IMG/VR virus record: IMGVR_UViG_3300017716_001690
Location: 1 to 44,709 of that record
Strand: one strand, 5' to 3'
DNA: 44,709 bases
DNA from: a virus
Taxonomy: Duplodnaviria > Caudoviricetes
The translations under genes were made by a program, and so were the position numbers. Under the pieces are notes generated by a model. The model made no database searches, was not told the origin of the DNA, and was given only the letters and a program-made list of their open reading frames with translations. This document shows, in pieces, positions 15,891 to 38,126 of this stretch. Each line of letters starts with the position of its first letter. Within the stretch, counting starts at the first letter, position 1.

Positions 15891-15931
15891 GTGGTGTCTC
15901 CCTGTTGATTGGGAGACTATGCCCGACATTC

Positions 15932-19723: not shown

Positions 19724-20959
19724 CTAACCAACGAACCAAGCCGCGCCGGTATCATATACCGGAACGTGAACCGCACCGCCGCCCGCGACAGCCGCGCCGA
19801 ACACCGGGGCGTTTGCATCCGACACCGCCGCGCGTCGACCGGCTGTACCCGCCGCCGGGAGCGTCGCCACGGTGTAGACGCGCATTCGGTGTATTCGGTT
19901 TTGGTCGATCACGATGTTACCCGTACCGCCGCCGCCGACCTGAATGCCGCGATCGGTGTCAACGCGAAGCATTCCGTTTGTGATCGTCGTCGTTCCGGGT
20001 GCGATCAAGTTGACCGCGAAGTTTGTTCCGGCAGCGGTGTCGGACCAATTTTCATTCGACGCAAGCGTGATGCTTGCACGGTTGCTAATGTACCCCGTGT
20101 CGCCGTATCCGCTACTCGCCATACTCAGCAAGTTTTGACCAGTAAGAACCGGGGTCGGCGCGGCGGCGGTTCCGTTTGCGCGGCGTCCAACATAAATTGA
20201 CGACGCGCCGTAAGTATCGAGCACGACAGATGTACGCGTTGACGCGTCCGCACCGGCAATATGCAGGATCGCGAGCCCCGGCAGGGACATGGCTGTTGTG
20301 TTCAGGTTGATTTGCTGTTGCGACGTGAAGTTGTTCGTTGCGTTCAGAATCGGAAGGTTCAACTCTGTTCGCGTGCAATTTTCCCACGCTCCCGCCGCCG
20401 CCGTCTTGCGACCGACGATATTGTATTGCGCCGTCGCGTTGACGAGACGCGCAAGCGCAACCGTGTTGTCCGTGAACATTCCCGCCGTGAGCGCGCCGAA
20501 GTTCAGCGCGCCGCCGGTACGACGCAATACCGTATCGTCAACCGTGGCGGCGGGCAAATCCTCAACCGCGACCCAATCATACGACAGCGGCGACCCGGCG
20601 GTGTTGCGCCAAACGTACGACACGTTTTCGTCGCGCACCCAAACGCGCAAGCCTTGTTGACGCGAGCCCATGGCGAGCGGCGTACCGGCGTCGTCAACGC
20701 CCGGAATAAAGCGCCACGCGTTGCCCCAATATACGGCGATGCAAAACGGGTACAGCGCCCACGCGCCGGTCGGCGACGCGGTGTTGATCAGGTACGCGTC
20801 GCCCTCCGTCGGCGATCCCGGCGGCGCGGTCAAGTCTTTGTCGATCACGCCAGACGCCGCGAGCGTTTGAAGCAACACGATTGTTTCGTTGAACGTGATT
20901 TCAGGGAACGCTTGCGCTTGCGCGAGTTCCGGCAACCCAAGATCGGCGGTCGTGGTCAT
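19724..20959 (-). CDS. DUF2793-containing tail fibre / receptor-binding protein
   Basis: LGLPELAQAQAFPEITFNE..PPGSPTEGDAYLI..TGAW..WRFIP N-terminus typical of DUF2793; Thr/Gly/Ala-rich beta-type C-terminus. Confidence 0.75.
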   Translation of the reverse strand: MTTTADLGLPELAQAQAFPEITFNETIVLLQTLAASGVIDKDLTAPPGSPTEGDAYLINTASPTGAWALYPFCIAVYWGNAWRFIPGVDDAGTPLAMGSRQQGLRVWVRDENVSYVWRNTAGSPLSYDWVAVEDLPAATVDDTVLRRTGGALNFGALTAGMFTDNTVALARLVNATAQYNIVGRKTAAAGAWENCTRTELNLPILNATNNFTSQQQINLNTTAMSLPGLAILHIAGADASTRTSVVLDTYGASSIYVGRRANGTAAAPTPVLTGQNLLSMASSGYGDTGYISNRASITLASNENWSDTAAGTNFAVNLIAPGTTTITNGMLRVDTDRGIQVGGGGTGNIVIDQNRIHRMRVYTVATLPAAGTAGRRAAVSDANAPVFGAAVAGGGAVHVPVYDTGAAWFVG

Positions 20960-21032
20960 GAGAAAAATACCATCCAGAGAACAAACCAAAGGATTGCGGA
21001 GAGAACCAAGCTAGAGACAACGGCGCGCATGG

Positions 21033-23366
21033 TCAAACGGTACCCTCAGTCACTTGCCCGCGCCCATAGACGCCCGACATTTGATACACGTCGACCCGAA
21101 CCAACGCGCCCGGCGTGTTGCCGTCGGCAGTCGCCGCCGCGCTTGTGTACGTGTACGTCGGCGTCGTGACAACTTCCGATCGCACAACCGTTGCGCCGTT
21201 GTATATATCGAGCGCGTACGACTCCGCGTCTTCACCGAGCGGAACAGCGCCGCCGCCGATCGCGGGCGTTGAAAGCCGCGTGCGCCGGGTCCATGAAATC
21301 ACGACGTCGCCCGATCCGTCACGGTCGCCGCGAAGGTGTGTCACGTTCAAGGGTCGTTTCCCTTCCCCGGTGTTTTCGAATGTTTGCGGCGTACCGTCGA
21401 TCAAGTCGGGAAGACTATCGGCGCGGTACGTGTACGTCGCGTTCCACGTCGCCGCCGTGTCAACGATCCGGTACAGTACGTCGGGGTCCGTCATGAGCGC
21501 GAAGCGTTCGCCGCCCCCGTGCGTGCCCACTAGCGCCTCAGTACCGAAGCGCCCGCGCAACAGGTCCGACAGAATATACGAACCCGGCGGCGACGTCGGC
21601 GTGACGGTCGCGAATTGAATGTATTCGCCGTCGTGCCCGTCCGCTGCACCGACCCAAGCAATGTTCGCGCGCGAGCCTAGCACTTCGGCTTCCGTCGCAC
21701 TCGACAACGTGTCGTCCGGGTCGACCGGCGTAACCGTGAGTGTGTTGACCCGGTCCCATACGTCAGTCGGTCCGCTCGCGAGCGTCGTATCGCACGTCGC
21801 GACCACGCCGCCGACGCCGATGTTTCCGACCACGTCGTACGTAAGGGGCGATCCGACACCGAGCGCGCGATACACTTCCGCGCCGCGCCAGCCTGCGGAC
21901 GCGCCAGCGAAGATCGCCAGAAACCCGACGTCGTCGTGCGTGTCGCGTGTGATCGCGGCGTCAATGAACAGCGCGGTTGTGTCGCCCGCGAGTTCAAGCG
22001 AGTTCGTGGGGAAGTTGCCAGCGTCGCCGGTCAGGATGCCGATATAGATCAACGAGTCTTCGAACGTGACTTCTAGGTCAATCATTCCGTTCGGCGACGA
22101 CGTGACGGTGTTGATTCGGAAGGGCTCATACTGCCCCGCGATTTGCAAGCCGATCAAGTCGCCAGCGTCAAGCCAACGATATTTATTCGACAACGTCACC
22201 TTGAGCATTTTAAGGCGCGCGGCGGCTTCGAACAACGATCGTTGCGCAAGGTTCCGCGCTTCGGTGTCAGTCAACACGATCGGAACGTCAACGCTAAGTT
22301 TGTTTTGCCCGATCGTCGCGGAGCGCCCGGCGCGTTGCGTGCTTGGCTGATAGTCGCGCGTTGGGTCTAGGTAGTTCACCGCGAGTTCGTCGGGAACTTT
22401 CGATATGCTGGCGACGCGCGCTTCCTTCGTTGACGCCGGGCGTTCGCCAACCGGCGCGGCGGCGTATTCCGTTTCGGCGATAAGGGTTCGCATAGCCCCG
22501 CCACGCGACACGGTCTTGAAGCCCGCGCCTTTCATGACAAGGTCAAACGCAAACGCAGCACCAAGCGGGTTGATTGCATCCCACGCCGAACCGTCGTTCG
22601 CCGCGACGAACCCGCGACACGGCAACAGCCGAATGCTTGTCGTATCCACGGCGACGTCAGCCGTTGCGGCTATGTCTTCCACGATCGCGTCAAGCGTCGT
22701 GATCATGGGTTCAACTTCAAATTCCAAGTTAGGAACGCGCGACCCGAAATCCGCGAGCGCGATACGTTCGAACACGACGGACGTAACGCCACGATACGCC
22801 GGGACGACTTCGCCGGGGTGCAGCGTTTGGAACAGCGGGTCAACACCTTGCGTCGCTTCGCCTCGATACAAGCGCACGTACGTAATCGTTCCCTGCGTCT
22901 TGTTGACCTTGCCGAATTGCAGCGCGCCGTTTGCCAGCGTTTCGCCCGCCGTCGCGCCGGTCGCGTCACGATCGAATACAACTTTGCCGTTCGCGTAGAT
23001 ACGCTTCAAACCGTTCGGCGCAATCGCGATACCTTCCGCGAGCAACACATGCAAATGTGCGTCGTATGTGTAATACTTCACACCGCCAAGCCCGGCGATG
23101 GAACCTTTCTTATGCTTGACCGGCAACAAGTCCGACTTGTCTATGACGTTCCCGGCGACGCGCACGGTTGCCCCGTACAGGCGCGGGATAGGTTTGCCAT
23201 AGGTCGACGTCTGTATTTTAAGGTCGGATAGTCCCGGCTGTTTCGATCCGCTTACGGCGGCGTTGAACAGCGTCGAGACGAGGAATTGCCCGAACGTCCC
23301 AAGGCTTGCCCAAAGCGCGGCGGCGGCTTGGAATACGGCGACGATCGTTGCTGTAATCGGGTCCAT
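21033..23366 (-). CDS. tail tip / central fibre protein (GTA megatron / Phage-tail_3-like)
   Basis: STYGKPIPRLYG..RVAGNVI, PAYRG, LADFGSRVPNLEFEV, DPTRDYQ, LLRGRFGTE, ISWTRRTR, PLGEDAESY. Confidence 0.85.
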   Translation of the reverse strand: MDPITATIVAVFQAAAALWASLGTFGQFLVSTLFNAAVSGSKQPGLSDLKIQTSTYGKPIPRLYGATVRVAGNVIDKSDLLPVKHKKGSIAGLGGVKYYTYDAHLHVLLAEGIAIAPNGLKRIYANGKVVFDRDATGATAGETLANGALQFGKVNKTQGTITYVRLYRGEATQGVDPLFQTLHPGEVVPAYRGVTSVVFERIALADFGSRVPNLEFEVEPMITTLDAIVEDIAATADVAVDTTSIRLLPCRGFVAANDGSAWDAINPLGAAFAFDLVMKGAGFKTVSRGGAMRTLIAETEYAAAPVGERPASTKEARVASISKVPDELAVNYLDPTRDYQPSTQRAGRSATIGQNKLSVDVPIVLTDTEARNLAQRSLFEAAARLKMLKVTLSNKYRWLDAGDLIGLQIAGQYEPFRINTVTSSPNGMIDLEVTFEDSLIYIGILTGDAGNFPTNSLELAGDTTALFIDAAITRDTHDDVGFLAIFAGASAGWRGAEVYRALGVGSPLTYDVVGNIGVGGVVATCDTTLASGPTDVWDRVNTLTVTPVDPDDTLSSATEAEVLGSRANIAWVGAADGHDGEYIQFATVTPTSPPGSYILSDLLRGRFGTEALVGTHGGGERFALMTDPDVLYRIVDTAATWNATYTYRADSLPDLIDGTPQTFENTGEGKRPLNVTHLRGDRDGSGDVVISWTRRTRLSTPAIGGGAVPLGEDAESYALDIYNGATVVRSEVVTTPTYTYTSAAATADGNTPGALVRVDVYQMSGVYGRGQVTEGTV

Positions 23367-24466
23367 TATTCCACTTCCGCGCCGGGTGAGTCTTGCAGGT
23401 CGTCAGTCCCTCGCACGTACGGGAAGCCGCCGAAGTTGAGAGAATTACTAAACACGGTGTCGCACACCGTCAAAGACTTATCGCACCCTTTGACCGCTTC
23501 GTACGTGTCGCCGATTTGTATGTCGTACTGTGTCGCCTGTTCCAGCACGAATTGACCGGCGGAGAATGAACGAATGTCGATCGTCTGCCCCGCGTTGTTC
23601 CCGGTCAACCACGTGAGCGTACCAAGTTGCCAGTAATCGTCGGCTTCCGCGCGCGACGAATCAATGAAGGTCCGACGCTTCGACATAAGCCAAAGGTTAG
23701 GGAGCGACACGGCAGTTACCGCGCCCGACGCCGTGAACGCGGCAAGGTTCACACCGCACCGACCGTCGCCCAACTTGTACCGGCACGACGGCGTGACGGT
23801 TTGCAAGACGGACGCTTGTTGCAGGCGTTCCGCCGGGGTGACGACTTCGAATTTAAACGTCGTGTCCGCGAAGTTCACTTCGCCAATCCGACCGGCCATA
23901 AGTTGCCGACCGAATGTCGGGTCTTTCCAATCGACGCGCCACACTTCGACTTCCGCGCCAGCGAAGCGCCCCGCCCAAATGTCCGACGCTTTGATTTTGT
24001 TCGCCGTGATCAGTCCCGACAAATCGAGGTTGTCGACTTCGCCAAGCGTGGCGGAGAGTTGCAGCGCGGACGCGGTCATGCCGCCGCACGTGCCGTACAC
24101 TTCGCCGTTAAACGTCACGTCGCGATCGTGAGACGTGAAGCGGAACACTTGACCGTCGGCGCGGGTGATCTTCCACGCCTCGCACTCCGTCGTCATGCAT
24201 AGCGGCGCGTTTGCGTGAACGCCAACCATGACGCGAAGTTGTGTCGTACGTGTTGCACCCGCGCCGTGCGATCCGGTCATGACGCGAAGTTGTGTCGCGC
24301 GCGTCGGCGGAATAACCTTGATCCCGACCATTGCGCGGACTTGCGTTGCGCGCGCGGGCGCGGAAACGCGAACACCTACCATTGCGCGAAGTTGCGTTGA
24401 TCGCGTCGCGCCGGAACCGAGCGACCCAACCATAACCCGCGCTTGAGTCGCCCGGGTGTTGGTCAC
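23366..24466 (-). CDS. baseplate hub protein (DUF2163 / BR0599-like) with N-terminal 17-aa repeats
   Basis: WKITRADG..FTSHDRD, CRYKLGDGRCGVNL, GCDKSLTVC..FSNSLNFGGFPYV. Confidence 0.85.
   Translation of the reverse strand: MTNTRATQARVMVGSLGSGATRSTQLRAMVGVRVSAPARATQVRAMVGIKVIPPTRATQLRVMTGSHGAGATRTTQLRVMVGVHANAPLCMTTECEAWKITRADGQVFRFTSHDRDVTFNGEVYGTCGGMTASALQLSATLGEVDNLDLSGLITANKIKASDIWAGRFAGAEVEVWRVDWKDPTFGRQLMAGRIGEVNFADTTFKFEVVTPAERLQQASVLQTVTPSCRYKLGDGRCGVNLAAFTASGAVTAVSLPNLWLMSKRRTFIDSSRAEADDYWQLGTLTWLTGNNAGQTIDIRSFSAGQFVLEQATQYDIQIGDTYEAVKGCDKSLTVCDTVFSNSLNFGGFPYVRGTDDLQDSPGAEVE
24203..24457 (-). repeat. five tandem ~51-bp (17-aa) repeats, consensus xTRxTQLRxMVG
   Basis: TRATQARVMVGSLGSG / ATRSTQLRAMVGVRVSA / PARATQVRAMVGIKVIP / PTRATQLRVMTGSHGAG / ATRTTQLRVMVGVHANA. 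Confidence 0.85.
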
Positions 24467-24468
24467 TG

Positions 24469-25548
24469 TTAAACCGTTTTTTCAATCCGAATTTGCGCGG
24501 CGTTGAAGCTTGTCGGCGTCCAAGGTACGCCGGTCGCGGGGTCCGTTTCGAACGTGTCGCGCCAGTACGTATATGTTTCGGTGATAGCGCGATCGGTACC
24601 CGAACCGACGGACGCGCCCGACACCATTGACACCTGCACTTGTGCCGCGCCCGCGTCGGTCTTGCGGAGCATCGGCTTAGACACAACCGCGAGCACTTCG
24701 CCGACCGTGCCCGGCAAGGTTTCCAAGTCATAGTCAGACTTTTGCGCGGCGGCGGTCGCTTCAACGTACGTCGTGTCGGCGTCCGGGGTCGTGTCGCTGA
24801 TACAGCTAAAGTCGGTCGCGCCAGTGTTGCGCGTCCAATCGGTTGTGACGGTGTCGCCGTTGACGTTCATGTCCAACCATTGCGTGTCGCCAAGGAACGT
24901 TGTGTTGTACGTCCCGGTCGTGTCGCAGCAATACAGGTCCGCGCAATCATAGTTCGAAACGCCCGACCCGACCGGCGATTGCAGGATTGCGGCTTGCGAT
25001 ACGGTCGTGATTGCCGTCGCTTGCGTGTCGACCGAACTTGCGTTGATGACGACGACGCCGTTGACGCGCACAATGACCGAGCCGTCCGCAGGCGACGCGC
25101 CGTTTCCGACGTCAAGGAACACTTCAATAAAGTGATACGCGCTCGCGGTAATCGGCGGCGTCGGCGACAGCGCGTCGCTATCGGCGATCACGGTTGCAGT
25201 CGTGCCGCGCCGTACTTCGATCTTGCCCGTTGACGTGACGACGACGCGCACTTGTGCGGCGTTGGCGGAGTCGCGGATTTCGAACGGGTAAACTTCCGTC
25301 GTCGGAAGGCTTGGCATGTAGAACGCCGCGCCCATGACCACCTGCACCAAGTCCGCGCCGAACACGAAACGGGCAATCGAGTTGACCGAAGCCGTGGCGC
25401 TTCGAAGGTGTGTCGACCCTAGCCCGCGTGGGTTCGTTGTTTCCGGTGACGTTTGCGAACCGACTTGCGCCCAAACGCCCGCGAGCAAATTCGTTCGCCC
25501 GGTCGCGCCAGTTCCGACACCGTTGAAGTTTTCCGCGAAACGCAGCAT
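24469..25548 (-). CDS. virion structural protein (Thr/Ser-rich, probable beta-sandwich/lectin-like tail-tip component)
   Basis: Lies between the Dit and hub genes; composition and DPATGVPWT C-terminal motif typical of tail-associated proteins. Confidence 0.65.
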   Translation of the reverse strand: MLRFAENFNGVGTGATGRTNLLAGVWAQVGSQTSPETTNPRGLGSTHLRSATASVNSIARFVFGADLVQVVMGAAFYMPSLPTTEVYPFEIRDSANAAQVRVVVTSTGKIEVRRGTTATVIADSDALSPTPPITASAYHFIEVFLDVGNGASPADGSVIVRVNGVVVINASSVDTQATAITTVSQAAILQSPVGSGVSNYDCADLYCCDTTGTYNTTFLGDTQWLDMNVNGDTVTTDWTRNTGATDFSCISDTTPDADTTYVEATAAAQKSDYDLETLPGTVGEVLAVVSKPMLRKTDAGAAQVQVSMVSGASVGSGTDRAITETYTYWRDTFETDPATGVPWTPTSFNAAQIRIEKTV

Positions 25549-25551
25549 TGA

Positions 25552-26232
25552 TCAATCCTCACAATACCGGACTTCCTGCAACGGAATGTCCGCAAATCCT
25601 GAAACCGCGTACGTCTTGAGGATGCCCCTAAACGTGTCGTCAGCTTGGAACCTAACTTGAATGTCAAACAAAAATCCAGCGGTTATGACAGTCCCGGCAA
25701 GCGGCGCGTGCGAGAAGTCGATATAACCGCCTTGGCGCGATACCGTCCAAGTCAAGCCGGGCGACAACACGCCGGGGTCGATACCGTCGATCCCGATCAA
25801 CACGGACGACGTAACCGGGAAGCATATCTGACGATCGTACGGCGTCGCGGGCGATCCCAAGTCGTAACGCTTGATCAGCCGGAAACGCGTGGTCGCGCCG
25901 TCGCCTGTTCCGATCACGACGTCAGTTCGCGATATCACCGGTTCTTCATTCGGGAGCGTCAACGGCACGGACGCAAAGTCGGTCGGGTCGCGCCACGGCC
26001 AAGTGTGCGCCGGTCCCGTCATCACTAGCCAATGGTCTTTGAGTGCTTCGAACGTGTCTTGATTGCGCACGCCGTCGGGAATGCTGATTTCGCGGAGCGC
26101 GTCTTGCCAGCGCGCGTTCGCCTGTTCCGCGCCGCTATCGACTTGGGCAATCTGCGTCGAGAACATGGGCGCGACTTCGACGGGCCAACCTTCGATTTTG
26201 TCGGCTAGATACTTGTCAACGAACCGGACCAT
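25552..26232 (-). CDS. distal tail protein (DUF2460-like)
   Basis: PMFSTQI..SGAEQANARW, WRDPTDF, IGTGDGATTRFRLIKRY, ITAGFLFDIQVRF, IPLQEVR. Confidence 0.85.
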   Translation of the reverse strand: MVRFVDKYLADKIEGWPVEVAPMFSTQIAQVDSGAEQANARWQDALREISIPDGVRNQDTFEALKDHWLVMTGPAHTWPWRDPTDFASVPLTLPNEEPVISRTDVVIGTGDGATTRFRLIKRYDLGSPATPYDRQICFPVTSSVLIGIDGIDPGVLSPGLTWTVSRQGGYIDFSHAPLAGTVITAGFLFDIQVRFQADDTFRGILKTYAVSGFADIPLQEVRYCED

Positions 26233-28589: not shown

Positions 28590-28593
28590 GGTG

Positions 28594-28956: not shown

Positions 28957-29303
28957 GGTTGTTCGGTTCCTTCCGTTTCGTCGCCGTCCGTCTTCTTCGC
29001 TTCCGGCATACCGGCGGCGGTGACTTCGGCGACAAGTTCCAGCAGCTTCATGAACGACGAACCGTCGTCAAAAGGCATGAGCGAGCGTATCGCCTTACCG
29101 TTCACGGACCCTTGCGGCTGAACGAATGCGGCGAAGATCGCCGACGCGTCCATAAGCCGGGGCGTTTTCTTTTCCATGCGGTTCAACACCACACCGTAAG
29201 AAACGCCTAGCTCGTCTTCAACTTGTGCCCACGCTTCGGTCGAAGCTTTAAGCACGAAGTCAACACCGCAGAAAGTCCGCTTGAGAGTTGATACGCTCGC
29301 CAT
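28941..29303 (-). CDS. tail assembly chaperone (gpG-like)
   Basis: Lies between the tail tube and TMP genes; ends in the slippery site. Confidence 0.75.
   Translation of the reverse strand: MASVSTLKRTFCGVDFVLKASTEAWAQVEDELGVSYGVVLNRMEKKTPRLMDASAIFAAFVQPQGSVNGKAIRSLMPFDDGSSFMKLLELVAEVTAAGMPEAKKTDGDETEGTEQPGKPR
28950..28956 (-). other. programmed -1 ribosomal frameshift site G-GGA-AAG
   Basis: Same heptamer as the lambda G/GT slippery site, two codons before the gpG-like stop. Confidence 0.75.
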
Positions 29304-29336
29304 GTCTTTAGTTCCCTTCGTTCAGTTGATCAGCGA

Positions 29337-29783
29337 TTACGCCGGAAGCGCATCGTTATAGATTGGGCCGGTCATGCGGAGCGTGATCTTGCGCGTCATC
29401 TTGTCGGCAAGCGGACGCGTGACCGAGTGTTTCGACACGAACGCTTGAACGTATTGGACGACAGCGGGAGACGATTGCGTCTCGCGCCAGCGCCACCAAC
29501 GCGGGAGCACTTCGGACAACATGCCTTGAATGGCCTCTTGCGCCGTGTCGGTCGGAAGGTAGTTCATTTCGAACTCGACTTCTTCGACGTCGACCAAGCC
29601 GCCGATATACTCGCGGCGTTTCTGTTCGCTGTTTTGGTTGGTCGTTTCCACGAACTCGCGGGTTTCGCTGATTTCGGGGAAGTCGCCAACCTGATTCACT
29701 TCGGTGAAGGCGACCGGCGAAGCGCCGAGCACCGACTCATATGCGAGCAAGGTACCAATACCAAGCCTAGCGCCAGTCGTCAT
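29337..29783 (-). CDS. major tail tube protein
   Basis: GIGTLL, VETTNQNS..REYIGGL, FEMNYLP, ITLRMTG; AAGGA RBS. Confidence 0.85.
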   Translation of the reverse strand: MTTGARLGIGTLLAYESVLGASPVAFTEVNQVGDFPEISETREFVETTNQNSEQKRREYIGGLVDVEEVEFEMNYLPTDTAQEAIQGMLSEVLPRWWRWRETQSSPAVVQYVQAFVSKHSVTRPLADKMTRKITLRMTGPIYNDALPA

Positions 29784-29844
29784 TTTCGTTTTTCCTTTAG
29801 TCCGGGTTGCGGTTGACTATCGTTAGGTTTGCGTGCGTGCGGCG

Positions 29845-30252
29845 TCAACCGTGATCCGCAGTTACGATCCAATCAAGAACGCGGCGGAATTGCCGTGGTC
29901 CCGGTGCGTCGAGTTCAGGAACGCCGAACAATTGGTCATTGTCCAAGAACGCGGCTTGAATATAAACGCTCGCAATCGTGCGCCCGATCTTGCCCGACAT
30001 GCCAGCAATCAACAGGTCGCGCACGGCTTCGGTTGCTTCGTTCGTGAGCGCGTACACGTCGACTTGGTATCGAAACGTCGTCACGCCGTCCGGTCCGTTT
30101 TGCGTGTATTCACGCGGAGCGGTGACGAGACGGTACACGACTTGCGCCAACGTCGGGTGTTGCGGCGAATACGCCGGGTACACGCGGTCGCCGATCGTCG
30201 CGGGCGATCCGTCGCACGAAGTGATCAGTTGTCGGAATGCTGCGTCCATCAC
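29845..30252 (-). CDS. tail terminator (DUF3168-like)
   Basis: IGDRVYP, VVYRLV, RYQVDVYA motifs and gene order. Confidence 0.8.
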   Translation of the reverse strand: MMDAAFRQLITSCDGSPATIGDRVYPAYSPQHPTLAQVVYRLVTAPREYTQNGPDGVTTFRYQVDVYALTNEATEAVRDLLIAGMSGKIGRTIASVYIQAAFLDNDQLFGVPELDAPGPRQFRRVLDWIVTADHG

Positions 30253-30761
30253 TTCGCCTTTAGCTTTCTCTTGCGGAAACGCGCAAGCGCCTTTTCAACT
30301 TTGAACAGGATCGACGCCGACACGAACTTAATATACACGTCCTTTTGCGTATCGAACGCCGGGCGCATGAACGGTTGAGGGTCGGCGATCCCAAGGTACT
30401 TGCCGGTCTTTGTGTAGCGCGGTCCGGTTCCCCATTCGACCAAGTGCGCGTGCGGCGCGTATCCCTTCTTCGCCGCGTCCGTGCGCGAGTAGTTCGGACC
30501 GACGAACGCGCGGGTTTCTTCCTTGCCCGGCTTGCGCGATCCCCGCGCCTGTTCCTTCACGATCCGCCACGTACGCACCATCGAGTCGCGCAAGCGCCCG
30601 TCACGCACCGGCACACGCGACACGGCGTCGTCGGCGAACACGTCGGCGGCGTCGATCATAGCGTCACGCACGGCGCGCTTAGAGACGGACGGCGGCAACT
30701 CTTGCAGCAGCTTTCGAACGTCCCTCAGCCCTTCCAGCTTGGCGCTAAATCCAGACGTCAC
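30249..30761 (-). CDS. HK97 gp10-like tail completion protein
   Basis: LEGL, PVRDGRLRDS, AHLVEWGT, PQPFMRPAFD. Confidence 0.85.
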   Translation of the reverse strand: MTSGFSAKLEGLRDVRKLLQELPPSVSKRAVRDAMIDAADVFADDAVSRVPVRDGRLRDSMVRTWRIVKEQARGSRKPGKEETRAFVGPNYSRTDAAKKGYAPHAHLVEWGTGPRYTKTGKYLGIADPQPFMRPAFDTQKDVYIKFVSASILFKVEKALARFRKRKLKAK

Positions 30762-31108
30762 GGTTGCCCCTCTTCCGCGCGCCCGACGGTCGGCAAGTGT
30801 GCCTCGACCTTGCGTCCGATTTCGACCACGCCGAGCAATTCGTACACGCGGTTCCGATACACGATACGGTGCGTGCGCGGCGACATGCTCGGCGTAATCG
30901 CTTCGTTCCAGCGGACGCGGAACAACGTGTCAACCGTGGCGTACCGTTGCGACGCAACGAACCGTTCCATTGCGGATTGTGATTCGATCGCGGCTTTCAG
31001 CGTGTACGCCTGCGTCCAAGTCTCGACCGGTTGACCGTCGCCGTTTTGCGTCGTCGTCACCGTCTCGATACTGATTACCCGATCAAATGCCCCGGCGCGC
31101 GTTGTCAT
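30758..31108 (-). CDS. head closure protein (SPP1 gp16-like)
   Basis: AGAFDRVISIE, DGQPVETW, FRVRW, RIVY motifs. Confidence 0.8.
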   Translation of the reverse strand: MTTRAGAFDRVISIETVTTTQNGDGQPVETWTQAYTLKAAIESQSAMERFVASQRYATVDTLFRVRWNEAITPSMSPRTHRIVYRNRVYELLGVVEIGRKVEAHLPTVGRAEEGQP

Positions 31109-31746
31109 GTGTTGTCATACTGCCGAATGTTTGTAAGCGAGTTCAAGATGCGTTCAAGCACCTGCCCGCGAAGAATGGCGCTGTTGTCGTACACGCCGCG
31201 CGTGTCGTACGTTTCGGTCAGCACGGCGCGTATAACGTTCTTGACTTGCTCCGGTACGTTGACCGTTTCAGGCGACCCGGTGACATAGCCGCAACGGTAC
31301 GTGATCAGTACCGAGTCACGATCAAGGCGCGCGACCGGCCACGATCCGTTATAGACGACTTCAAGCGTTGCGCGCGCGTCGTGCGTGTCACCTTGAAAGA
31401 TTCGGTAGTCGGTACCTTCGACCATCGTTTGCGTCGCGCCGTCCGCGTCGGTGTACGTGAACGACACGATTTCGATAAACGGCGGGAACGGTAATTTGAT
31501 TCCGCAATCATCCGGCGGGAAGGCGTCAAGACCGACGCGCCACGTTTGCGGCGCGAGCGCGCGACCAAGCCAACCGGTCCCGGCGTCAAGGTCCGCCACG
31601 ATCGCGGCAATTTCGGCGGTAATAAGCGCGTCGTCCGGGTGCGACGGCGGCGACCCGACGGCGTCAAGGCGAAGTTGCAAGTACGCATCCGACAGCGACA
31701 AAACCGTGTCGGTCGGCGCGACGGTGCGGCGAATAGTGCGTGTCAT
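31105..31746 (-). CDS. head-tail adaptor (HK97 gp6-like)
   Basis: VLSLSDAYLQLRLD, DDALI, GRALAPQTW, LPFPP, VLITYRCGY, VPEQVK. Confidence 0.85.
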   Translation of the reverse strand: MTRTIRRTVAPTDTVLSLSDAYLQLRLDAVGSPPSHPDDALITAEIAAIVADLDAGTGWLGRALAPQTWRVGLDAFPPDDCGIKLPFPPFIEIVSFTYTDADGATQTMVEGTDYRIFQGDTHDARATLEVVYNGSWPVARLDRDSVLITYRCGYVTGSPETVNVPEQVKNVIRAVLTETYDTRGVYDNSAILRGQVLERILNSLTNIRQYDNT

Positions 31747-32501
31747 TTGTAATTCTCCGCGACCCATGGGACGAACGGCGCGACGCGGTACGGTTCGTCA
31801 ATTCCATGGAAATTTACACACCGCGCCCCGGCGGGCAAGTCCGATACACAGTCGACGTCGGGACGGAACGGTATATGCGCCTCACCGCGTGGCGTTTGGC
31901 GTATGTGCACCCGCCACGACACCGCGCCGTCGGACACGCGCCAGCGCGGCATGTTCGGCCCAAGGTGCAAGGCGAGTTGCGCTTGATCGCTTCCGAAGAA
32001 ACGCGACTTGCGCGCGAGTTCAATGCACGCGGCGGGGTCGGCTTTGAACCGCTCCCACACGTCATGAACGCCGGGCGCGATCAATTGCATAGCGCCGTTG
32101 TACGGCGACGTCGGGTTTAGGTTATCCGCCCATAGCACCCCTTCCGGTTCCGGGCGATCCCATAGCGGGCGCACGTCCGACACTAGCACCATGTCTAAGT
32201 CAATTTGCAGGATGCGCGGGCCGAACCATTGCCGCGCTTCGTGACTGTAGAGTTTCAGGCGACGGAAGCATGACGGGTTATTCCCGCCGTGCGGCGACGG
32301 CATATCGCGAAAGTCATCCCACAACGGAACCACGCGCACGCGGGTTTGATCAATCCCGGTCGCGTCGTCGGTAACGCACGTGAAGCGGTACGGCGCGTCG
32401 TAATGGCGGCGCGTCATGCGCTCCATAATGTTGACGTGCTCGCCAGTGTAGGTCGACCGATAACCCGGCTTCGACCATTTGAACGTGACGACGTCTAGCA
32501 T
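31743..32501 (-). CDS. putative glycosyltransferase (GT-A fold)
   Basis: VVTFKW..Y..EHVN, FTCVTDD, RLKLY, ILQIDLDMVL (DxD), YNGAM, GSDQ, VNFHG..EPY. Confidence 0.75.
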   Translation of the reverse strand: MLDVVTFKWSKPGYRSTYTGEHVNIMERMTRRHYDAPYRFTCVTDDATGIDQTRVRVVPLWDDFRDMPSPHGGNNPSCFRRLKLYSHEARQWFGPRILQIDLDMVLVSDVRPLWDRPEPEGVLWADNLNPTSPYNGAMQLIAPGVHDVWERFKADPAACIELARKSRFFGSDQAQLALHLGPNMPRWRVSDGAVSWRVHIRQTPRGEAHIPFRPDVDCVSDLPAGARCVNFHGIDEPYRVAPFVPWVAENYK

Positions 32502-33139
32502 TTGAACACCGGGTTTTCCGTTTTCACGTCGCCGATATGCGACGTGATGTTTCCTCGATACAGCGTCGGGCGGCGCGTGTGAATGTGTGAGAGCGCGCGC
32601 GAGACGTCTTTAAGCGACTTCGCTTTGTTGATTGCGTCGACCAACAGCGGCGCGCGAGTGATCGACGGTTGCGCGCCCCAATGACAAAACGCATATTCCC
32701 AACCGGGCGCGTCGCAACACCGCCAGTTAATAGGCGTTTTCGTTTCCATGTGGTGACGCCCGGTCGGATACTTCCCGTGCGTGTCTTTGAACTCACCGTA
32801 TAGGCGGACGCAATCGCAATTCGAAATCAACGCATCGTGCGGCAAAGGCGCGACACTTACGCAATCGTTTTCAAGGTGCAGGATATGCGTTGCACCAAGC
32901 GCGGCGGCTTCGGACCACATGAACCGAAGCGCGGGCATGACGCCCCGGCGTTCACTCGACGCGTACACCGTTTCGAATCCGACGGCGCTTGCCATTAGAC
33001 GATTCAACGGGTCTTTGCTCCCGTCGTCCGCATGAAGCAAAATCATTCCGTCCGTTTCGTTCTTTTCAACGAACGTCGTTAGAGTTCGGTTCGTGTATTT
33101 CGGGCGATCGGACGTCAGCAGGCAAACGGCTAGCTTCAC
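32495..33139 (-). CDS. putative glycosyltransferase (GT2-like)
   Basis: LAVCLLTSDRP, HADDGSKD, ILHLEND, ITSHIG. Confidence 0.7.
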   Translation of the reverse strand: MKLAVCLLTSDRPKYTNRTLTTFVEKNETDGMILLHADDGSKDPLNRLMASAVGFETVYASSERRGVMPALRFMWSEAAALGATHILHLENDCVSVAPLPHDALISNCDCVRLYGEFKDTHGKYPTGRHHMETKTPINWRCCDAPGWEYAFCHWGAQPSITRAPLLVDAINKAKSLKDVSRALSHIHTRRPTLYRGNITSHIGDVKTENPVFKC

Positions 33140-33867
33140 GGGTAAACCCTCACATGGTCGACAACTTCGCCGGGTTGCCAGTACGTCCCGGCTTCGCGGA
33201 ATTGACGACGCATCGCACCAACGGCGGCGCGGTCAACGTCCGACTTCCGCCCGAACTCTTCCGGCATGGAAGCGTCGGCGATATCTTCGCGCCCGTAGCG
33301 TGTGAGCGTGATTGGCAACCGCACGACTTCGGCGGCGTGGTTCGTGACGCGATCCTGAAACGCGGCGTTTTGCCCGTAGTGACCACGATACCGAGTATCA
33401 TACCCGCCGATGATATCCCACATGCGGCGGCTGATCAGCCATGAATCGGGATGCGACTTCTTCGCGGACCCGTCAACGTTCTCGCGTTCGAAGGTGTAGA
33501 CAACGTCATACTTCAACTCGCCTTTGTGGCGGAGCGTGAACAGACGTTGCCAGCCGCGCGCGTGCATCACGTGGTCAATGTCCGTGACCAACAGCCATTC
33601 GCCCCGCGCGTGCGACGCGGCGACGTTCGTTGCGCAACGGTGCGACCAACGAATGTGCGGCGGCGGAATTCGGAACAGCGACATACGCGTACACAGTCCG
33701 ACCGGCGGCGCGATCGGAACGCGCGACGCGTCGTCGCATATCACGTACTCGATACGGTCGGCTTGCCCAACCGGAATGTTCCACGTCTCGCGCACGTGCG
33801 CGCGTAGCATGGTCGGCGCGTTGTGGTATGGCATGACAACGCTAAACACCGGATCGGTCAAAGTCAT
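33136..33867 (-). CDS. glycosyltransferase family 2
   Basis: FSVVMPYHN, VICDDAS, ATNVAA..ARGEWLLVTDID (DxD), IGGYDTRY. Confidence 0.85.
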   Translation of the reverse strand: MTLTDPVFSVVMPYHNAPTMLRAHVRETWNIPVGQADRIEYVICDDASRVPIAPPVGLCTRMSLFRIPPPHIRWSHRCATNVAASHARGEWLLVTDIDHVMHARGWQRLFTLRHKGELKYDVVYTFERENVDGSAKKSHPDSWLISRRMWDIIGGYDTRYRGHYGQNAAFQDRVTNHAAEVVRLPITLTRYGREDIADASMPEEFGRKSDVDRAAVGAMRRQFREAGTYWQPGEVVDHVRVYP

Positions 33868-34475
33868 TTCGTCGGTCTTCCATACGGGAACTCGCGGATA
33901 CGGCTTCGCGGGTTCGTGTTGAATACGCCAATCCCGGCGGCGCGGAATTGCAACGCGGCGGCGTGCATTTCTTCACGCCATGCGCCGAACTTCGCTTCGC
34001 TGTTGACGCACCCTTGACCCGCCCATGGGTACGGGCCGAAGAAGTGTTCGGGTTCGTCCATATCGAAGCCGTACAGATACACCCGGCGCGGCTTCATGTT
34101 GAACGCAAAGTTTAGCGCGACGTAACCGCTATTCGTTCCGTTCAAGATCATGTCGCCCGTGTTCGGTTCGGGCGTCGTCGCAAAGCGTGTCGACTTGTTG
34201 TCGCAGGCGTACACGTTGACGCCTTCCCAATGTTTCGCGCCCGCGTCGATCGCGTGTTGCCACGCACTACCGCGAACGACAAACGGTCGACCCTGCAACT
34301 TGGGCCATTCTTCGCGAGCGAATCGACCGTCCATCGTCAAGGCGACGTCGTGGCGCACGTAACGAAACGCGCCGTTGACAGCCACAACCATTCCCGGCGC
34401 GGACGCTGCACCGCACTTGAGCGCGGACGGACCGCACGCAACAATCGACACAACGTCCGGGCGCGGGAACTTCAT
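33864..34475 (-). CDS. Maf/DUF115 (CstII-like) putative glycosyltransferase
   Basis: VSIVACGPS, VVAVN, LTMD, NSGYVALNFA, VYLYGFDM..HFFG. Confidence 0.65.
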   Translation of the reverse strand: MKFPRPDVVSIVACGPSALKCGAASAPGMVVAVNGAFRYVRHDVALTMDGRFAREEWPKLQGRPFVVRGSAWQHAIDAGAKHWEGVNVYACDNKSTRFATTPEPNTGDMILNGTNSGYVALNFAFNMKPRRVYLYGFDMDEPEHFFGPYPWAGQGCVNSEAKFGAWREEMHAAALQFRAAGIGVFNTNPRSRIREFPYGRPTK

Positions 34476-34478
34476 GAC

Positions 34479-35660
34479 CTAGTCCTTACGGCATTTGACG
34501 ACGCACTTTTTCCATTCGTCTTTGACGACTTTCACTTTCGGCCAACCGGCGGCGCGGAGGAATTCGCACCACTGTTCCGTCGTGTAAAGCGAAACGTGCG
34601 CGTTGCGCCCGTCGGCTAGAACCTTCTTCGCCGGTTGCTTCGCGATCACGAAGTATCCCGCGCGCCGCGCTTTCAGGTACACGTGCCGAAGTACGTTCGG
34701 AATCAATTCCGGTTCGATGTGTTCGAAAACGTCGGTCGACACGACAAGGTCGGCGATCTTCGGGTCAACCGAAATTTCCGGCACGCCGGGGTCATACTCT
34801 TTCGGTTTCAGCCCGGCGGCGGCAAGCACCGGGGCAAGCGTCCGTCCGCCCGCGCCGTAATCGAGCACGTCGACCGTGCCGAGTTCTTTTGCAAACTCGA
34901 CAATCGGTTGCGCCCATGACGCGCCGCCGCGACCCCAGTTTGTTTCACGGTGCGCCTTGCGGATCAACTCGCGATATGCGGGCGACGTCAAATCGTTTTC
35001 GTTGAACGCGAACGCGCCTTGGTTTTCTTCCGTCATGAATTGTCCAATCAATCCCAAATCGAGCGCATGAATTCCCCGGAATGCGAGGCGTGCCGCGAGC
35101 GCCGTTCCCGCTGCACCTAGTGAAATGATAACCGTACGATTGCGGTTGCGAGTTGAGCACTCCGTTTCGATCCGGTCAATATGGTCGTACGCGTCTTGCA
35201 AAGGTGCGGCCACGATTTGCAGGGACGCAACGCCCGACTTGTGCATGACGTTTGCCAGCGTCGCGGACCCGCCGACGTACAGCACGTCACGCCCGCGCCA
35301 GATTGAGCGAACCAAATCCCAATAATCGGGCGTGTCGATCCATGGCGCGTTGTCCGGGCGCGAGACAAACGCGGACCCATACACGGGCGCGCGCATGAGC
35401 GAGACGAACGGCGGCGTTGCGTACTTGTCCCAATACGCGGCACGTGGTCCGACCCGGTGCGGAATGCACGGGAGCACTTCGCGCACGCGACCCGCGAGAA
35501 TGTGCAACAATTCCATGCGCAACTTTGGGTCGGCGCGTTGCGAGACGGATTTACCGCCGCGACAGATTTGCAATTCCCCGTCGCCGAAGCGCGCGATTGA
35601 TCGCCCGGCGGCGGCGTACTCCATCGTCGTCCGTTCGGTCAAGGCGTCAGGGAAGCGCAT
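34479..35660 (-). CDS. GT-D fold (DUF1792-like) glycosyltransferase fused to class I SAM-dependent methyltransferase
   Basis: N-terminal SIARFGDGE, FVSRP, IISLGAAGTALA, ALDLG; C-terminal VLDYGAG, YDPG, DLVVSTDVFEHI. Confidence 0.8.
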   Translation of the reverse strand: MRFPDALTERTTMEYAAAGRSIARFGDGELQICRGGKSVSQRADPKLRMELLHILAGRVREVLPCIPHRVGPRAAYWDKYATPPFVSLMRAPVYGSAFVSRPDNAPWIDTPDYWDLVRSIWRGRDVLYVGGSATLANVMHKSGVASLQIVAAPLQDAYDHIDRIETECSTRNRNRTVIISLGAAGTALAARLAFRGIHALDLGLIGQFMTEENQGAFAFNENDLTSPAYRELIRKAHRETNWGRGGASWAQPIVEFAKELGTVDVLDYGAGGRTLAPVLAAAGLKPKEYDPGVPEISVDPKIADLVVSTDVFEHIEPELIPNVLRHVYLKARRAGYFVIAKQPAKKVLADGRNAHVSLYTTEQWCEFLRAAGWPKVKVVKDEWKKCVVKCRKD

Positions 35661-36264
35661 CGGTGATAACCTTTCGCGGGAAGCATGTTAGGGCGGTGCG
35701 GCGTGACGCGTTGATGACTTCGACGCCGCGCGCGGCAAGCGCCGGGGCGACACGTTCGAAGGCTTCGCGCCACACGGCGAACGCCTGCGGTGACGGGTTG
35801 GACATGGGCGGCGGGTGATCGCCGTCGAAATGGGACGCCCCGGCGTCGGACGGCTTAAGGTCCAACCCAAGGAACGTGACTTTGCGAACGCCTCGCAACA
35901 TGGCAATTCCCAACGCCTGAAACGAAGAGTTCGCCCCTTCGTATATCGGGTACGAATTAGCGATTGCCGCGCCTTGCTTGGTCGCCAATAGCGAAACGCC
36001 GGGCGGCGGCGGGGTGTGTACCCATTGCGTGTTGCGCGCACTGGCGAGCCGTTCCCCTTTGAATTCGTCGGCGGACGGCGCGCGGCGGAACCACCATTGC
36101 GCGTCGGCGGCGTACAGGGTGTCGGCTTTGGGGCAAAGCTTCCACGCGTTATTGACGACGATTACCCGGCGCGCGGCTAGGCGCGCGTAATCCGCGTCGG
36201 CGCGCGTCAGCGACGGACCGGACGCGATAATGCAAACGGTTTGCCCGTCCCATTCATTCGCCAT
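35647..36264 (-). CDS. Maf/DUF115 (CstII-like) putative glycosyltransferase
   Basis: VCIIASGPSL, VIVVNN, LYAAD..WW, GANSSFQALGIA, TFLGLDL, HFDGDH, EVINAS. Confidence 0.7.
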   Translation of the reverse strand: MANEWDGQTVCIIASGPSLTRADADYARLAARRVIVVNNAWKLCPKADTLYAADAQWWFRRAPSADEFKGERLASARNTQWVHTPPPPGVSLLATKQGAAIANSYPIYEGANSSFQALGIAMLRGVRKVTFLGLDLKPSDAGASHFDGDHPPPMSNPSPQAFAVWREAFERVAPALAARGVEVINASRRTALTCFPRKVITDALP

Positions 36265-36279
36265 TGGGAAGCCTCAGAG

Positions 36280-36318
36280 ACAAACACGCCGCCGTGCGGA
36301 AGGGTACACACGGCGGCG
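36280..36318 (-). terminator. hairpin/terminator between the capsid genes and the glycosyltransferase cluster
   Basis: CGCCGCCGTG...CACGGCGGCG stem followed on the minus strand by TGTTTGT. Confidence 0.5.
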
Positions 36319-36344
36319 CGCTATGACGGCCGGAAATCGGGCGA

Positions 36345-36728
36345 TTAGCCCTTGTTCACGTATGCCGTATCGGTTGCCGGAGTCGAGTCTTTCTTTTCGA
36401 AGACCAGAACGGCATGGTACGCGTTCGGCGACTTTTCGTCGGTGATCGTTGCCGAAACGTGGGTGTACGGCGTCGACGCGTTGAACGAACCGAGTTCTTC
36501 GATCAGCGCCGTAACGGCGGCGGCATAGTCGCCGGTTACGGACGAACCAAGGTTGGCGGCGTTCGAACCGGCAACGTCGGTCGCTTTGCGAAGTTGGATC
36601 GTGACTTCGTTTGACGGCGACGACGCGTACAGCGCGCGGACGATACCCGTAACGGCTTTCATGCCGCTAATCGGATTCCACACGGCGGGGTCGGCGGTCT
36701 TGATCAGTTCAGAAAGGCGTGCAGTCAT
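36345..36728 (-). CDS. putative capsid decoration / virion protein
   Basis: 127-aa Ser/Thr/Ala-rich ORF immediately downstream of the MCP. Confidence 0.6.
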   Translation of the reverse strand: MTARLSELIKTADPAVWNPISGMKAVTGIVRALYASSPSNEVTIQLRKATDVAGSNAANLGSSVTGDYAAAVTALIEELGSFNASTPYTHVSATITDEKSPNAYHAVLVFEKKDSTPATDTAYVNKG

Positions 36729-36800
36729 TTTCGTTTTCTTTCGTGTTTTGGACCGATGCCGCCCGGCGATTATACCGGGCGGCTAGGCGGCGTGGCTTCG

Positions 36801-38126
36801 TTAGGCGGCAAGCACAACGAAGGGCGACGACGTGCGACCGTCTTGACCTTCGAACGGTTCCGTCAGCCACGGCTTACCGTCAACGTTCGTGAACGCTTTC
36901 ACGACGGTCTTGTTGCTGAGGAAGTAGACGTGTTCGCTGTAGGCGATGAACGGACCCGAACCGTCTTTGATCAGGTACCCGGTCAGGTCGACAAGGGCGA
37001 CGTCACCGCGAGCGCCGACAGCCGGCGAACGTTCCGACCAAATGACCGGATAGCCGAACAGCGAATCGGGGATTGCCGATTGCATGTTGCCTTGCGTGAA
37101 CACGTACGCGCCTTGACCCGCGCCGCCGCTGTTGTCCTGAATCTGAGCGATGACAGGAAGAAGCGCGCGGTTGATGATCCAGACCGGCGAACCGCCGAGC
37201 ATGAGCAGGCGCGCGAGCATTTCGACAAGATCGGCGTACTTCACCGTGCTTGCGGTCGTGCGCGCTTGTGCGTACGCAGCGCCGGAACCGATGAAGCCTT
37301 GCGGCTTGCCGATACCGTTGCCGGAAATGAACGCTGCGTCTTCCGCGTACGCGAGCGCGCGGGGAAGTTGCGAAGCGACGTACGCGCCAGCCGCCGCGCT
37401 GTTGCGCAGCAGTTTGTCAGTCATGACGATGTGCCCGGCGACTTCCTGCGGTTTCAGGGAGACGAGACGGAAATCGGCGTCAGTTTCCGGCTTCGCGCCG
37501 CCTTCCGCGATCCACGACACCGAGACGCCACCATAGACGTTATTGGGTGACGTGCCGGTTTGGTCGAGCGCCGGAATGTCGATTTCGGCGTCAGCAGGCG
37601 TACCGGCGGGAATGACCGTGGCGCGCGAACGGACGATCGACTGCGGGCCAGCAACGGCCATGATCGTTGCGCGGAATTGCGTCGGAATCATGAAGCCGCC
37701 GGATTGGCCGGTGTCCATACGTTGTTCGGCGCGCACGTCGCCGTCGTCACGGAATTCGCGACGCGAACGGAACAGCGCGGCAAGGCGCGCGTCATTCGGG
37801 TTGCAGATCGCAGCGCCGCAGAATTCCGCGAGGGTTTCGAATTCCTTCGGCTGTTCAGCGCCGCGCATGGGAACCGTGCGACCGGCGGCGACCGGCGTTG
37901 CGGCGGGCGTGGCGGCGACAGCGGCGGCGGGAGCCGTGCGACGGGCAAGCACTTCCGCGCGGCGCGCGGCGATGTTTGCGGACGCTTCGGCGGCGTGGTC
38001 GATCGCGTCGAGTTCCGCTTTCAGACCGTCAAACTTGACGGTTTCGTCGGCGGTCAGGTCGCGAGTTTCGGCTTCGGCAGCGGCAAGAATCGCTTCCATC
38101 GCCGCAATGAGTTGAGCACGATTCAT
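36801..38126 (-). CDS. major capsid protein, HK97 fold with N-terminal delta domain
   Basis: AEAETRDLTADE..FD, GGFMIP, WIAEG, AEDAAFISGNGIGKPQG, SLFGYPV. Confidence 0.93.
   Translation of the reverse strand: MNRAQLIAAMEAILAAAEAETRDLTADETVKFDGLKAELDAIDHAAEASANIAARRAEVLARRTAPAAAVAATPAATPVAAGRTVPMRGAEQPKEFETLAEFCGAAICNPNDARLAALFRSRREFRDDGDVRAEQRMDTGQSGGFMIPTQFRATIMAVAGPQSIVRSRATVIPAGTPADAEIDIPALDQTGTSPNNVYGGVSVSWIAEGGAKPETDADFRLVSLKPQEVAGHIVMTDKLLRNSAAAGAYVASQLPRALAYAEDAAFISGNGIGKPQGFIGSGAAYAQARTTASTVKYADLVEMLARLLMLGGSPVWIINRALLPVIAQIQDNSGGAGQGAYVFTQGNMQSAIPDSLFGYPVIWSERSPAVGARGDVALVDLTGYLIKDGSGPFIAYSEHVYFLSNKTVVKAFTNVDGKPWLTEPFEGQDGRTSSPFVVLAA

Follow-up and report, generated by a model that had tools for sequence, protein, structure and literature searches.

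The virus record IMGVR_UViG_3300017716_001690 (IMG/VR; Duplodnaviria, Caudoviricetes; positions 1 to 44,709), referred to below as the window, is a 44.7-kb siphophage genome of 60% GC. Its structural operon lies on the minus strand and runs from the terminase through an S49 protease and an HK97-type capsid gene to the neck and tail genes and a tail tip of the gene transfer agent (GTA) type. A six-gene glycosyltransferase/methyltransferase-like cassette (31743-36264) separates the putative decoration gene from that of the adaptor. The virion proteins encoded on both sides of it are rich in the dipeptide Ser-Pro (SP), and in most relatives this richness accompanies one gene of the cassette, that of GTa. 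Many capsid relatives of the window phage, at 44-50% identity, sit in alphaproteobacterial genomes; therefore, its host is likely a Gram-negative bacterium. The genes of the cassette are as follows.

35647-36264, minus strand: GTa, a stand-alone protein of predicted Maf/CstII fold, candidate priming protein O-glycosyltransferase (phrog_4603, E 3e-37; structure model, Foldseek, VIA-align)
34479-35660, minus strand: GT-D-fold glycosyltransferase-like protein with a fused methyltransferase-like domain (PF08759, E 2e-22; PF13489, E 7e-8; TIGR03728 below cut-off)
33864-34475, minus strand: GTc, a second phrog_4603/phrog_2111 paralogue, in the clade of P1 PmgP (PHROG match, enzyme tree)
33136-33867, minus strand: GT2-family glycosyltransferase (PF00535, E 4e-6)
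32495-33139, minus strand: cassette protein, GT2-like by eye only, with no Pfam or PHROG family match and with a homologue in Tetraselmis viridis virus S20 (hereafter S20) by profile
31743-32501, minus strand: GTf, phrog_1962 glycosyltransferase, GT8/nucleotide-diphospho-sugar-transferase-like, in the PHROG of P1 PmgQ

The matches to PF08759, PF00535, phrog_4603 and phrog_1962 mark these as phage-encoded glycosyltransferase genes.

Ser-Pro dipeptides in the virion proteins

The SP sites of eleven virion proteins are listed below. The serines are numbered by residue, and the positions of the dipeptides are in brackets.

36801-38126, minus strand: major capsid protein, HK97 fold (PF05065); S193 (37545-37550), S313, S367, S434
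36345-36728, minus strand: putative decoration protein, named by position, with no Pfam or PHROG match; S37 (36615-36620), S100 (36426-36431)
31105-31746, minus strand: head-tail adaptor of the RcGTA Rcc01688 type (phrog_442; 6tba match); S32 (31648-31653), S158 (31270-31275)
30758-31108, minus strand: head closure protein (PF05521); S76 (30878-30883)
29845-30252, minus strand: tail terminator (phrog_347); S16 (30202-30207), S29 (30163-30168)
29337-29783, minus strand: tail tube protein (PF16461); S22 (29715-29720), S105 (29466-29471)
25552-26232, minus strand: distal tail protein, Dit (DUF2460); S127 (25849-25854), S157 (25759-25764), both insertions relative to RcGTA Dit
24469-25548, minus strand: 359-residue tail-module protein (phrog_2448; laminin-G-like lead only); S34, S128, S152, S191
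23366-24466, minus strand: baseplate hub; S360 (23384-23389)
21033-23366, minus strand: central fibre/megatron-like protein; S424, S506, S592, at short insertions
19724-20959, minus strand: DUF2793 fibre-like protein (ATG at 20959); S49, S62, S123

An initial annotation of the window had quoted SP motifs from these proteins, counted by hand about 26 SP in some 3,300 residues, and called for a composition-corrected test. The motifs lie in the minus-strand open reading frames (ORFs) where it had placed them, and the count is 26 in 3,336 residues. We calculated the expectation from the Ser and Pro content of each protein and shuffled each sequence 20,000 times. The 11 proteins hold 26 SP versus 9.46 expected (Poisson p 7e-6; reached in 0 of 20,000 shuffles), and all 14 virion proteins, with the portal, the gp10-like protein and the tape measure added, hold 28 versus 12.1 (p 6e-5; 1 of 20,000 shuffles). 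SP ranks first of the 400 dipeptides in both sets, with a Bonferroni-corrected value of about 0.03 for the set of 14. The reverse pair, PS, is depleted (6-7 in the virion sets), and TP stands at 1.25 times expectation. The 25 non-virion ORFs contain 25 SP versus 21.7 expected; the excess is thus found in the supposed targets and not elsewhere, as would be expected of a sequon. It does not depend on the capsid protein, removal of which leaves 24 versus 10.7 in 13 proteins (p 3e-4), and it spans 11 proteins of unrelated folds across 18 kb.

The motif had been described as [G/A/S/T]-Ser-Pro. Its SP core stands, with a mild preference for G (2.9-fold) and A (1.7-fold) at -1 and for P or E at +1, but S and T are not enriched at -1. 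The absence of SP from the tape measure, the tail chaperones and the gp10-like protein, which the same annotation had contrasted with the exposed proteins, is real; it is a weak contrast, because only 0.45-0.86 SP are expected in each. Its list of negatives is also incomplete: SP occurs in a 406-residue exonuclease (4 versus 1.1 expected), the primase (4 versus 3.1), the polymerase (3 versus 1.7) and the single-stranded DNA-binding protein (2 versus 1.4). The main exception, the exonuclease, is of the metallophosphoesterase type, has an N-terminal helix-turn-helix and is encoded at 16994-18214.

In the window, the serine codon is TCG at 22 of 26 SP sites and AGY at none. TCG is preferred before any codon starting with C, both in virion genes (23/31) and elsewhere (49/64), and TCGCC out of frame or antisense is not enriched in virion genes. 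In relatives, AGY codons specify the serine at 60 of 208 SP sites, and individual adaptor and tail-tube sites are encoded by either codon family. Given the general TCG bias, the lack of out-of-frame and antisense enrichment and the AGY codons, the sequences indicate that selection acts on the serine, at the protein level, rather than on DNA. The codon and out-of-frame/antisense counts rule out a DNA-level motif, TCGCC read as Ser-Pro.

Distribution of the Ser-Pro sites among relatives

Loci of relatives (handles L003 to L327 below) were fetched by capsid, GTf, central fibre or adaptor motif, and their genes were labelled on six frames with our own profiles, of which the GTa profile also picks up the GTc paralogue; single-protein scans of viral contigs gave 1 and 3 loci. 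A set unselected for SP was formed by excluding 80 motif-selected loci and requiring three or more exposed proteins plus a visible capsid gene or GTa; it comprises 84 loci, the window included, which fall into 66 clusters. In the 24 clusters with GTa, the exposed proteins contain 151 SP versus 78.7 expected (1.9-fold), whereas in the 42 clusters without GTa they contain 61 versus 72.0 (0.85-fold; Mann-Whitney p 7e-7 between the groups). Coarser clustering gives 1.73-fold with GTa versus 0.92-fold without (p 1.5e-4). TerL, portal, protease and gp10 of the relatives display no such contrast (1.24-fold with GTa versus 1.51-fold without). Thirteen loci without GTa that were fetched later hold 16 SP versus 20.1 expected, and none of the later loci with GTa showed two exposed proteins. 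The full module of one relative, L308, holds 22 versus 7.8.

The association also holds in the reverse direction. The adaptor motif, used as the sole criterion, retrieved 80 loci. Both the capsid and the adaptor gene are visible in 59 of them, and 57 of these 59 (16 of 18 clusters) carry a phrog_4603 gene. The other cassette genes are far from constant there: GTf is found in 6, another GT2 in 41 and a GT-D gene in 1. GT-D, GT2 and GTf were each rejected as the reader of the motif, being absent from most SP-selected loci; for GT-D the single occurrence in 59 is the reason. L191, L211-L213 and L234, which had appeared to be exceptions lacking GTa, have the gene according to the six-frame search. 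A whole-record search of 30 capsid-selected viral records without a local copy, most of them incomplete records, found no GTa, and 3 of 30 bacterial genomes matched GTa, namely L308 itself and two outside the fetched prophage loci. Hence the comparison of relatives with and without glycosyltransferase genes favours the initial annotation at the tail-tube, adaptor, decoration and capsid-insertion sites. Its interpretation is supported in part: the association is with one family, phrog_4603, and not with the glycosyltransferase cluster as a whole.

Site by site, the counts below compare relatives with and without the enzyme gene and exclude the window. The sites tied most tightly to the gene are S22 (16/18 with versus 4/35 without) and S105 (16/18 versus 1/34) of the tail tube. 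The residue preceding the tail-tube loop proline is Thr in 6, Ala in 5 and Ser in 4 relatives without the gene, and Ser in 16 of 18 with it. A search of the PDB by sequence returned no match for the tail tube. Four loci (L175, L177, L180, L187) have two tandem tail-tube paralogues, one with SP and one without.

In the adaptor, S32 is part of a G-S-P motif in a 14-residue loop, and the model places both SP sites in four-residue turns. S32 and S158 are each at least 90% conserved in 45 homologues. Tagged relatives have 14 residues, G-S-P among them, in this loop, which is shorter where the cassette is missing (mostly 7-11 residues); SP is present in the loop of 7/14 relatives with the enzyme versus 0/42 without, and at the second site in 4/14 versus 1/42. 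Among the 14 adaptor matches listed, none carrying the G-S-P motif was seen in a cultured phage; the adaptors of Kronos and ppBeUSDA76-1, which were read, have no SP. In the decoration protein, S37 is present in 4/10 relatives with the enzyme versus 0/17 without, and S100 in 8/10 versus 2/17.

The capsid sites had been taken for tags. This fails for three of the four, S313, S367 and S434, which are found throughout the capsid family: S434 is unchanged in all of 30 aligned members, S313 and S367 recur in many of 120 homologues, and none of the three tracks the enzyme gene in 66 representatives, although S367 did in a second, capsid-selected set (9/14 with versus 12/63 without). Only S193 is lineage-restricted. 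An insertion near capsid residue 336 contains SP in 6/14 relatives with the enzyme versus 0/63 without; the insertion is also present in the window capsid, which lacks SP there but has one at residue 193.

The remaining sites are more local. S76 of the closure protein is private to the window phage (0/21 relatives with the enzyme, 1/39 without), and S16 and S29 of the terminator are rare in relatives and nearly so. S360 of the hub is probably not a tag, because most relatives have T-P or S-P there. The first 90 residues of the hub contain several tandem R-A-T-Q-x-R-x-M-V-G-like units, and similar repeats occur in S20 and L141. The SP sites of the central fibre and Dit are insertions relative to the RcGTA proteins and to relatives, and S128 and S152 of the 359-residue protein lie in 3-4-residue insertions relative to the S20 homologue. 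The description of SP sites as short loop insertions is therefore right for many of them (2-6 residues). In a different subfamily of tail-tube proteins SP is found elsewhere in the chain, and some short adaptors from another family have it as well. The dipeptide is kept while its flanks and spacing vary, as protein-level selection for a sequon would have it, and the sites turn over between close relatives.

The Maf-like protein and known glycosylation systems

The model of GTa (205 residues; predicted local distance difference test score, pLDDT, 95.7) has Maf (5mu5) as its top match in both Foldseek (E 3e-5, TM 0.63) and VIA-align (Z 15.8, root-mean-square deviation 3.1, 179 residues aligned), and the predicted structure is a CstII-like GT-A catalytic domain, the fold of Maf_flag10/PF01973. 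Lower-scoring fold matches include an MptE-type pyrophosphokinase (HPPK; Z 11.4), a Campylobacter sialyltransferase (Z 10.5) and a thiamine pyrophosphokinase (Z 8.4). By sequence, GTa scores 18.4 bits against PF01973, below the cut-off of 34.6; the only Pfam match is a weak MptE-like one, and a PDB search returns only CstII (E ~0.6). Residues G16, P17, Y51, D54, W58 and N185 are invariant in 19 homologues.

Excerpts of two reports describe Maf as modifying Ser/Thr of flagellin with acids activated by cytidine monophosphate (CMP), N-acetylneuraminic acid (Neu5Ac) and Kdo (10.1101/2020.06.03.131540), and as composed of an N-terminal Rossmann-like, a catalytic and a C-terminal helical domain (PMC11339370). 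The GTa model corresponds along its entire length to residues 265-511 of Maf. The catalytic residues of Magnetospirillum magneticum Maf are E324 and D415. GTa, at 205 residues versus 632 and with 13-16% identity, lacks the N- and C-terminal domains. GTa is thus predicted to have the catalytic fold of Maf without its extra domains and, being a catalytic domain alone, is at best Maf-like rather than a member of the Maf family.

Homologues of GTa are present in 74 phage records, annotated for example as 'sialyltransferase' or 'putative morphogenetic'. In the enzyme tree, S20, L141 and L136 form one clade (100/100), and PAJU2, P1, D3 and Psp6 form another (97/90) with a second copy from L203. The SP-rich carriers of GTa are spread over several other clades, the backbone between which is poorly supported. 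S20 (L003, NC_020840.1), for which an algal host is named, has siphophage genes and a cassette and tail tip as in the window.

The GTa of the window has its own ATG. The Maf-like genes of many relatives, by contrast, lack a nearby ATG and overlap a small gene located after that of the capsid; examples are L209:5542-6323, L212:5546-6324, L325:5691-6409 (D3 orf6.5-orf7) and L003:32063-33219. A slippery-type heptamer lies no more than 30 codons upstream of the enzyme's first conserved motif in 54 of 83 copies without ATG versus 4 of 38 with their own ATG (counts not dereplicated), and D3 has a C CCA AAG slippery-type site at the orf6.5-orf7 overlap. These sequences suggest that a programmed -1 frameshift fuses a small domain to the Maf-like enzyme in relatives.

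Phage-encoded virion glycosylation has precedent. The glycosylation of mycobacteriophage virions (Che8 and relatives, Freeman et al. 2023) is known to us through excerpts of citing papers (PMC12619734, PMC11256854), according to which phage-encoded glycosyltransferases are thought to glycosylate the capsid and tail tube as an accessory shield, with glycans at the C-termini of these proteins and the genes close to the 3' end of these phage genomes. In the window, by contrast, the candidate sites, predicted from sequence, sit within the chains as SP loops of as many as 11 proteins, the cassette is part of the head-neck operon, the putative primer is predicted to adopt a Maf/CstII fold, and a Gram-negative host is probable. 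No mycobacteriophage is named among the GTa matches listed (60 of 74 records and an organism tally) or the four GTf matches, and no direct comparison of the enzymes was made.

Members of the cassette families also occur in cultured phages. P1 pmgO, pmgP and pmgQ belong to the families of GTa, GTc and GTf (phrog_4603, phrog_2111, phrog_1962); they lie at L327:23460-26128, are labelled 'putative morphogenetic function', and pmgP is separated from pmgQ by the ppp phosphatase gene. All three are non-essential, as stated in excerpts of PMC10695390. D3 orf7 and PAJU2 ORF10, among the head-neck genes in both phages, belong to the GTa family, and the PAJU2 homologue is called 'structural protein' in its GenBank record. 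These phages differ from the window in their separate enzyme clade and in virion proteins not significantly rich in SP.

The GT-D family (DUF1792, GT101), whose enzymes act in the glycosylation of serine-rich adhesins, extends O-glycans on serine-rich proteins. The N-terminal half of the protein encoded at 34479-35660 matches PF08759 of this family above cut-off; it differs in its fused methyltransferase-like domain and in a TIGR03728 score of 75.7 versus the 290.75 cut-off, as well as in its rarity among the SP-selected loci.

Loci L051-L081 and L302, which belong to capsid relatives, have NeuB-like, cytidylyltransferase and FkbM-type methyltransferase genes among the head genes, together with a distant GTa-like protein (E 0.6-0.9 to the GTa profile), and are SP-poor; this gene set is possibly another surface-sugar system. 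In the window itself, recurring upstream elements (13635-15954, 43655-44480, 4580-4647), comprising a 54-nt family D1 (four copies, 13653-15078), a 36-nt family D4 with a GTTAAC core and strong ribosome-binding-like words, are probably phage promoters or operators. The ends of the window (1-11, 44700-44709) share a word of ~10 nt, which fits an assembly that is circular and possibly complete. The DNA datasets listed as containing the window are two freshwater metagenomes, one of them possibly its source, and no RNA dataset is listed.

A candidate acceptor tag and its alternatives

From the observed enrichment, insertions, cassette and association with GTa, and from the predicted Maf-like fold, we infer, with a probability of roughly 0.55, that SP in exposed virion loops is an acceptor tag for a phage-made O-glycan, which GTa would prime and the neighbouring enzymes would extend. 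The literature searched, which leaves subscription papers such as Freeman 2023 out of scope, yielded neither an SP acceptor motif for virion glycosylation nor a link between Maf-like proteins and virions.

Late in infection, GTa would attach the first sugar, taken from a host nucleotide-sugar, to SP serines in accessible turns of virion subunits or of parts already assembled. The donor, judging from Maf and CstII, may be a CMP-ulosonate, e.g., Kdo or a nonulosonate, and the proline would provide the recognition for which Maf relies on its flagellin-binding domains. Interchangeable downstream enzymes (GT-D, the second Maf-like protein, GT2, the GT8-like protein and the methyltransferase) would then elongate the chain and cap it. 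Such a coat would be accessory, altering surface charge, stability or recognition, and would not be needed for assembly. The other enzyme subclades (P1, D3, PAJU2, S20) may use a different or looser acceptor rule.

Several observations weigh against a glycan acceptor tag read by GTa. Carriers of the gene need not be SP-rich: S20, with a full cassette, has 3 SP versus 7.4 expected, P1 18 versus 23.0 (21 proteins picked from annotation), PAJU2 12 versus 14.9, Psp6 3 versus 6.7, CcrColossus 8 versus 8.5 (two tail proteins), L141 4 versus 5.1 and L094 1 versus 1.5. The excess is weak in D3 (17 versus 12.7), where the terminator contains three SP and the tail-tube loop a single SP insertion, the one site in a cultured phage predicted to be modified; phiNP (9 versus 4.7) is likewise weak. 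As S20, P1, PAJU2 and Psp6 carry the gene without SP excess and D3 has little, a phrog_4603 gene is not sufficient. A changed specificity fits the SP-poor subclades, but as a rescue rather than a result, because no convincing replacement motif was found in these carriers. Asp-Ser is not enriched in D3, PAJU2 and Psp6 (27 versus 37.7); Ser-Gly in the S20 clade (47 versus 32.5, rank 8 of 400) is not convincing (L093 and L094 together, 14 versus 5.8, rank 5); and no dipeptide except TA stands out in the 21 P1 proteins. Conversely, SP occurs without the gene in L168, L069 and L304 and, as the adaptor motif, in L167 and L173, the last a 35.6-kb record estimated to be 66% complete with no GTa match. 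The known Maf enzymes have no sequon according to excerpts of PMC11339370, and the fold is shared with MptE-type and thiamine pyrophosphokinases. The adaptor loop may also be unavailable: the RcGTA 'adaptor loop' binds the stopper (excerpts of PMC7296036), and loop 1 of the window adaptor probably corresponds to it, by inferred mapping, so that the serine may be hidden. Finally, GTa changes state six times on the portal and capsid trees, and only 4 (portal) and 3 (capsid) independent contrasts fall on supported branches; a tree-aware paired test, with a cut-off chosen after the data were seen, agrees in direction (2.9 versus 0.1) but is underpowered and not significant (median p of 0.25 and 0.5).

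The scarcity of independent contrasts also speaks for an explanation by structural turns and hitchhiking, in which a G-S-P turn arose in a few neck/tail lineages and was inherited with the adjacent cassette, the enzymes of which glycosylate other residues, DNA or the host surface. Linkage can mimic co-evolution, because the cassette adjoins the adaptor gene and is close to the tail tube gene; the cassette-bearing phages without SP excess fit this explanation as well, and so do the three capsid sites and a tail-tube T-H-x-x-S-P site that are common without the gene and an RcGTA adaptor loop that is similarly long without SP. Hitchhiking does not readily account, however, for an excess in 11 proteins of unrelated folds over 18 kb, for the turnover of sites between close relatives, for the change from mostly Thr or Ala to Ser before the tail-tube loop proline where the gene is present, or for the confinement of SP-poor carriers mainly to two supported enzyme subclades (100/100 and 97/90). 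We therefore consider it unlikely. A still smaller chance is given to SP as a modification tag of other chemistry or with another primer, with phospho or pyrophospho groups from an enzyme of this fold acting as a kinase, or with a first sugar added by another cassette or host enzyme. The second fold match and the sole Pfam match are of the MptE type, and P1 has a protein phosphatase gene inside its cassette; but Maf scores well above the kinases (Z 15.8 versus 11.4 and 8.4), the adjacent genes encode glycosyltransferases and methyltransferases, and no other cassette gene is constant among the SP-selected loci.

It is very unlikely, too, that the SP loops are non-covalent docking sites for the Maf-like protein or another accessory protein that stays on the particle, as the 'structural protein' label of the PAJU2 homologue and the apparent -1 frameshift fusion of the ATG-less genes to the small gene after the capsid gene could be taken to mean. 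One accessory gene with scattered loops in tube, baseplate and fibres fits catalysis better than a stoichiometric role, the GTa gene heads a run of further transferases, and six residues of GTa are invariant. Chance, the choice of proteins after the fact, or a DNA motif read as Ser-Pro is scarcely credible: the TCG codons that would speak for it follow a genome-wide preference and give way to AGY in relatives, out-of-frame and antisense TCGCC is not enriched, and the unbiased set of 14 proteins and the relatives reproduce the excess, so that this explanation is largely refuted.

The acceptor-tag reading can be extended, tentatively and with less than even confidence, beyond the window. Widespread stand-alone Maf-fold phage enzymes may prime a whole-particle coat through the SP tag, which would be the first defined sequon for the fold; virions may gain the coat by acquiring SP loops in capsid, neck, tube, baseplate and fibre proteins, while the extension enzymes are swapped, and P1 pmgO/P/Q and D3 orf7 may be the same system with another acceptor rule. 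The membership of these P1 and D3 genes in the cassette families provides cultured test systems. If the proposal is true, a family found in 74 phage records, including P1 and D3, would gain a testable function, and a 205-residue soluble enzyme with a two-residue tag would make a compact tool for protein O-glycosylation. Textbook phages of Gram-negative bacteria would then be glycosylated as well, and glycosylated particles would be common among Gram-negative phages and predictable from sequence.

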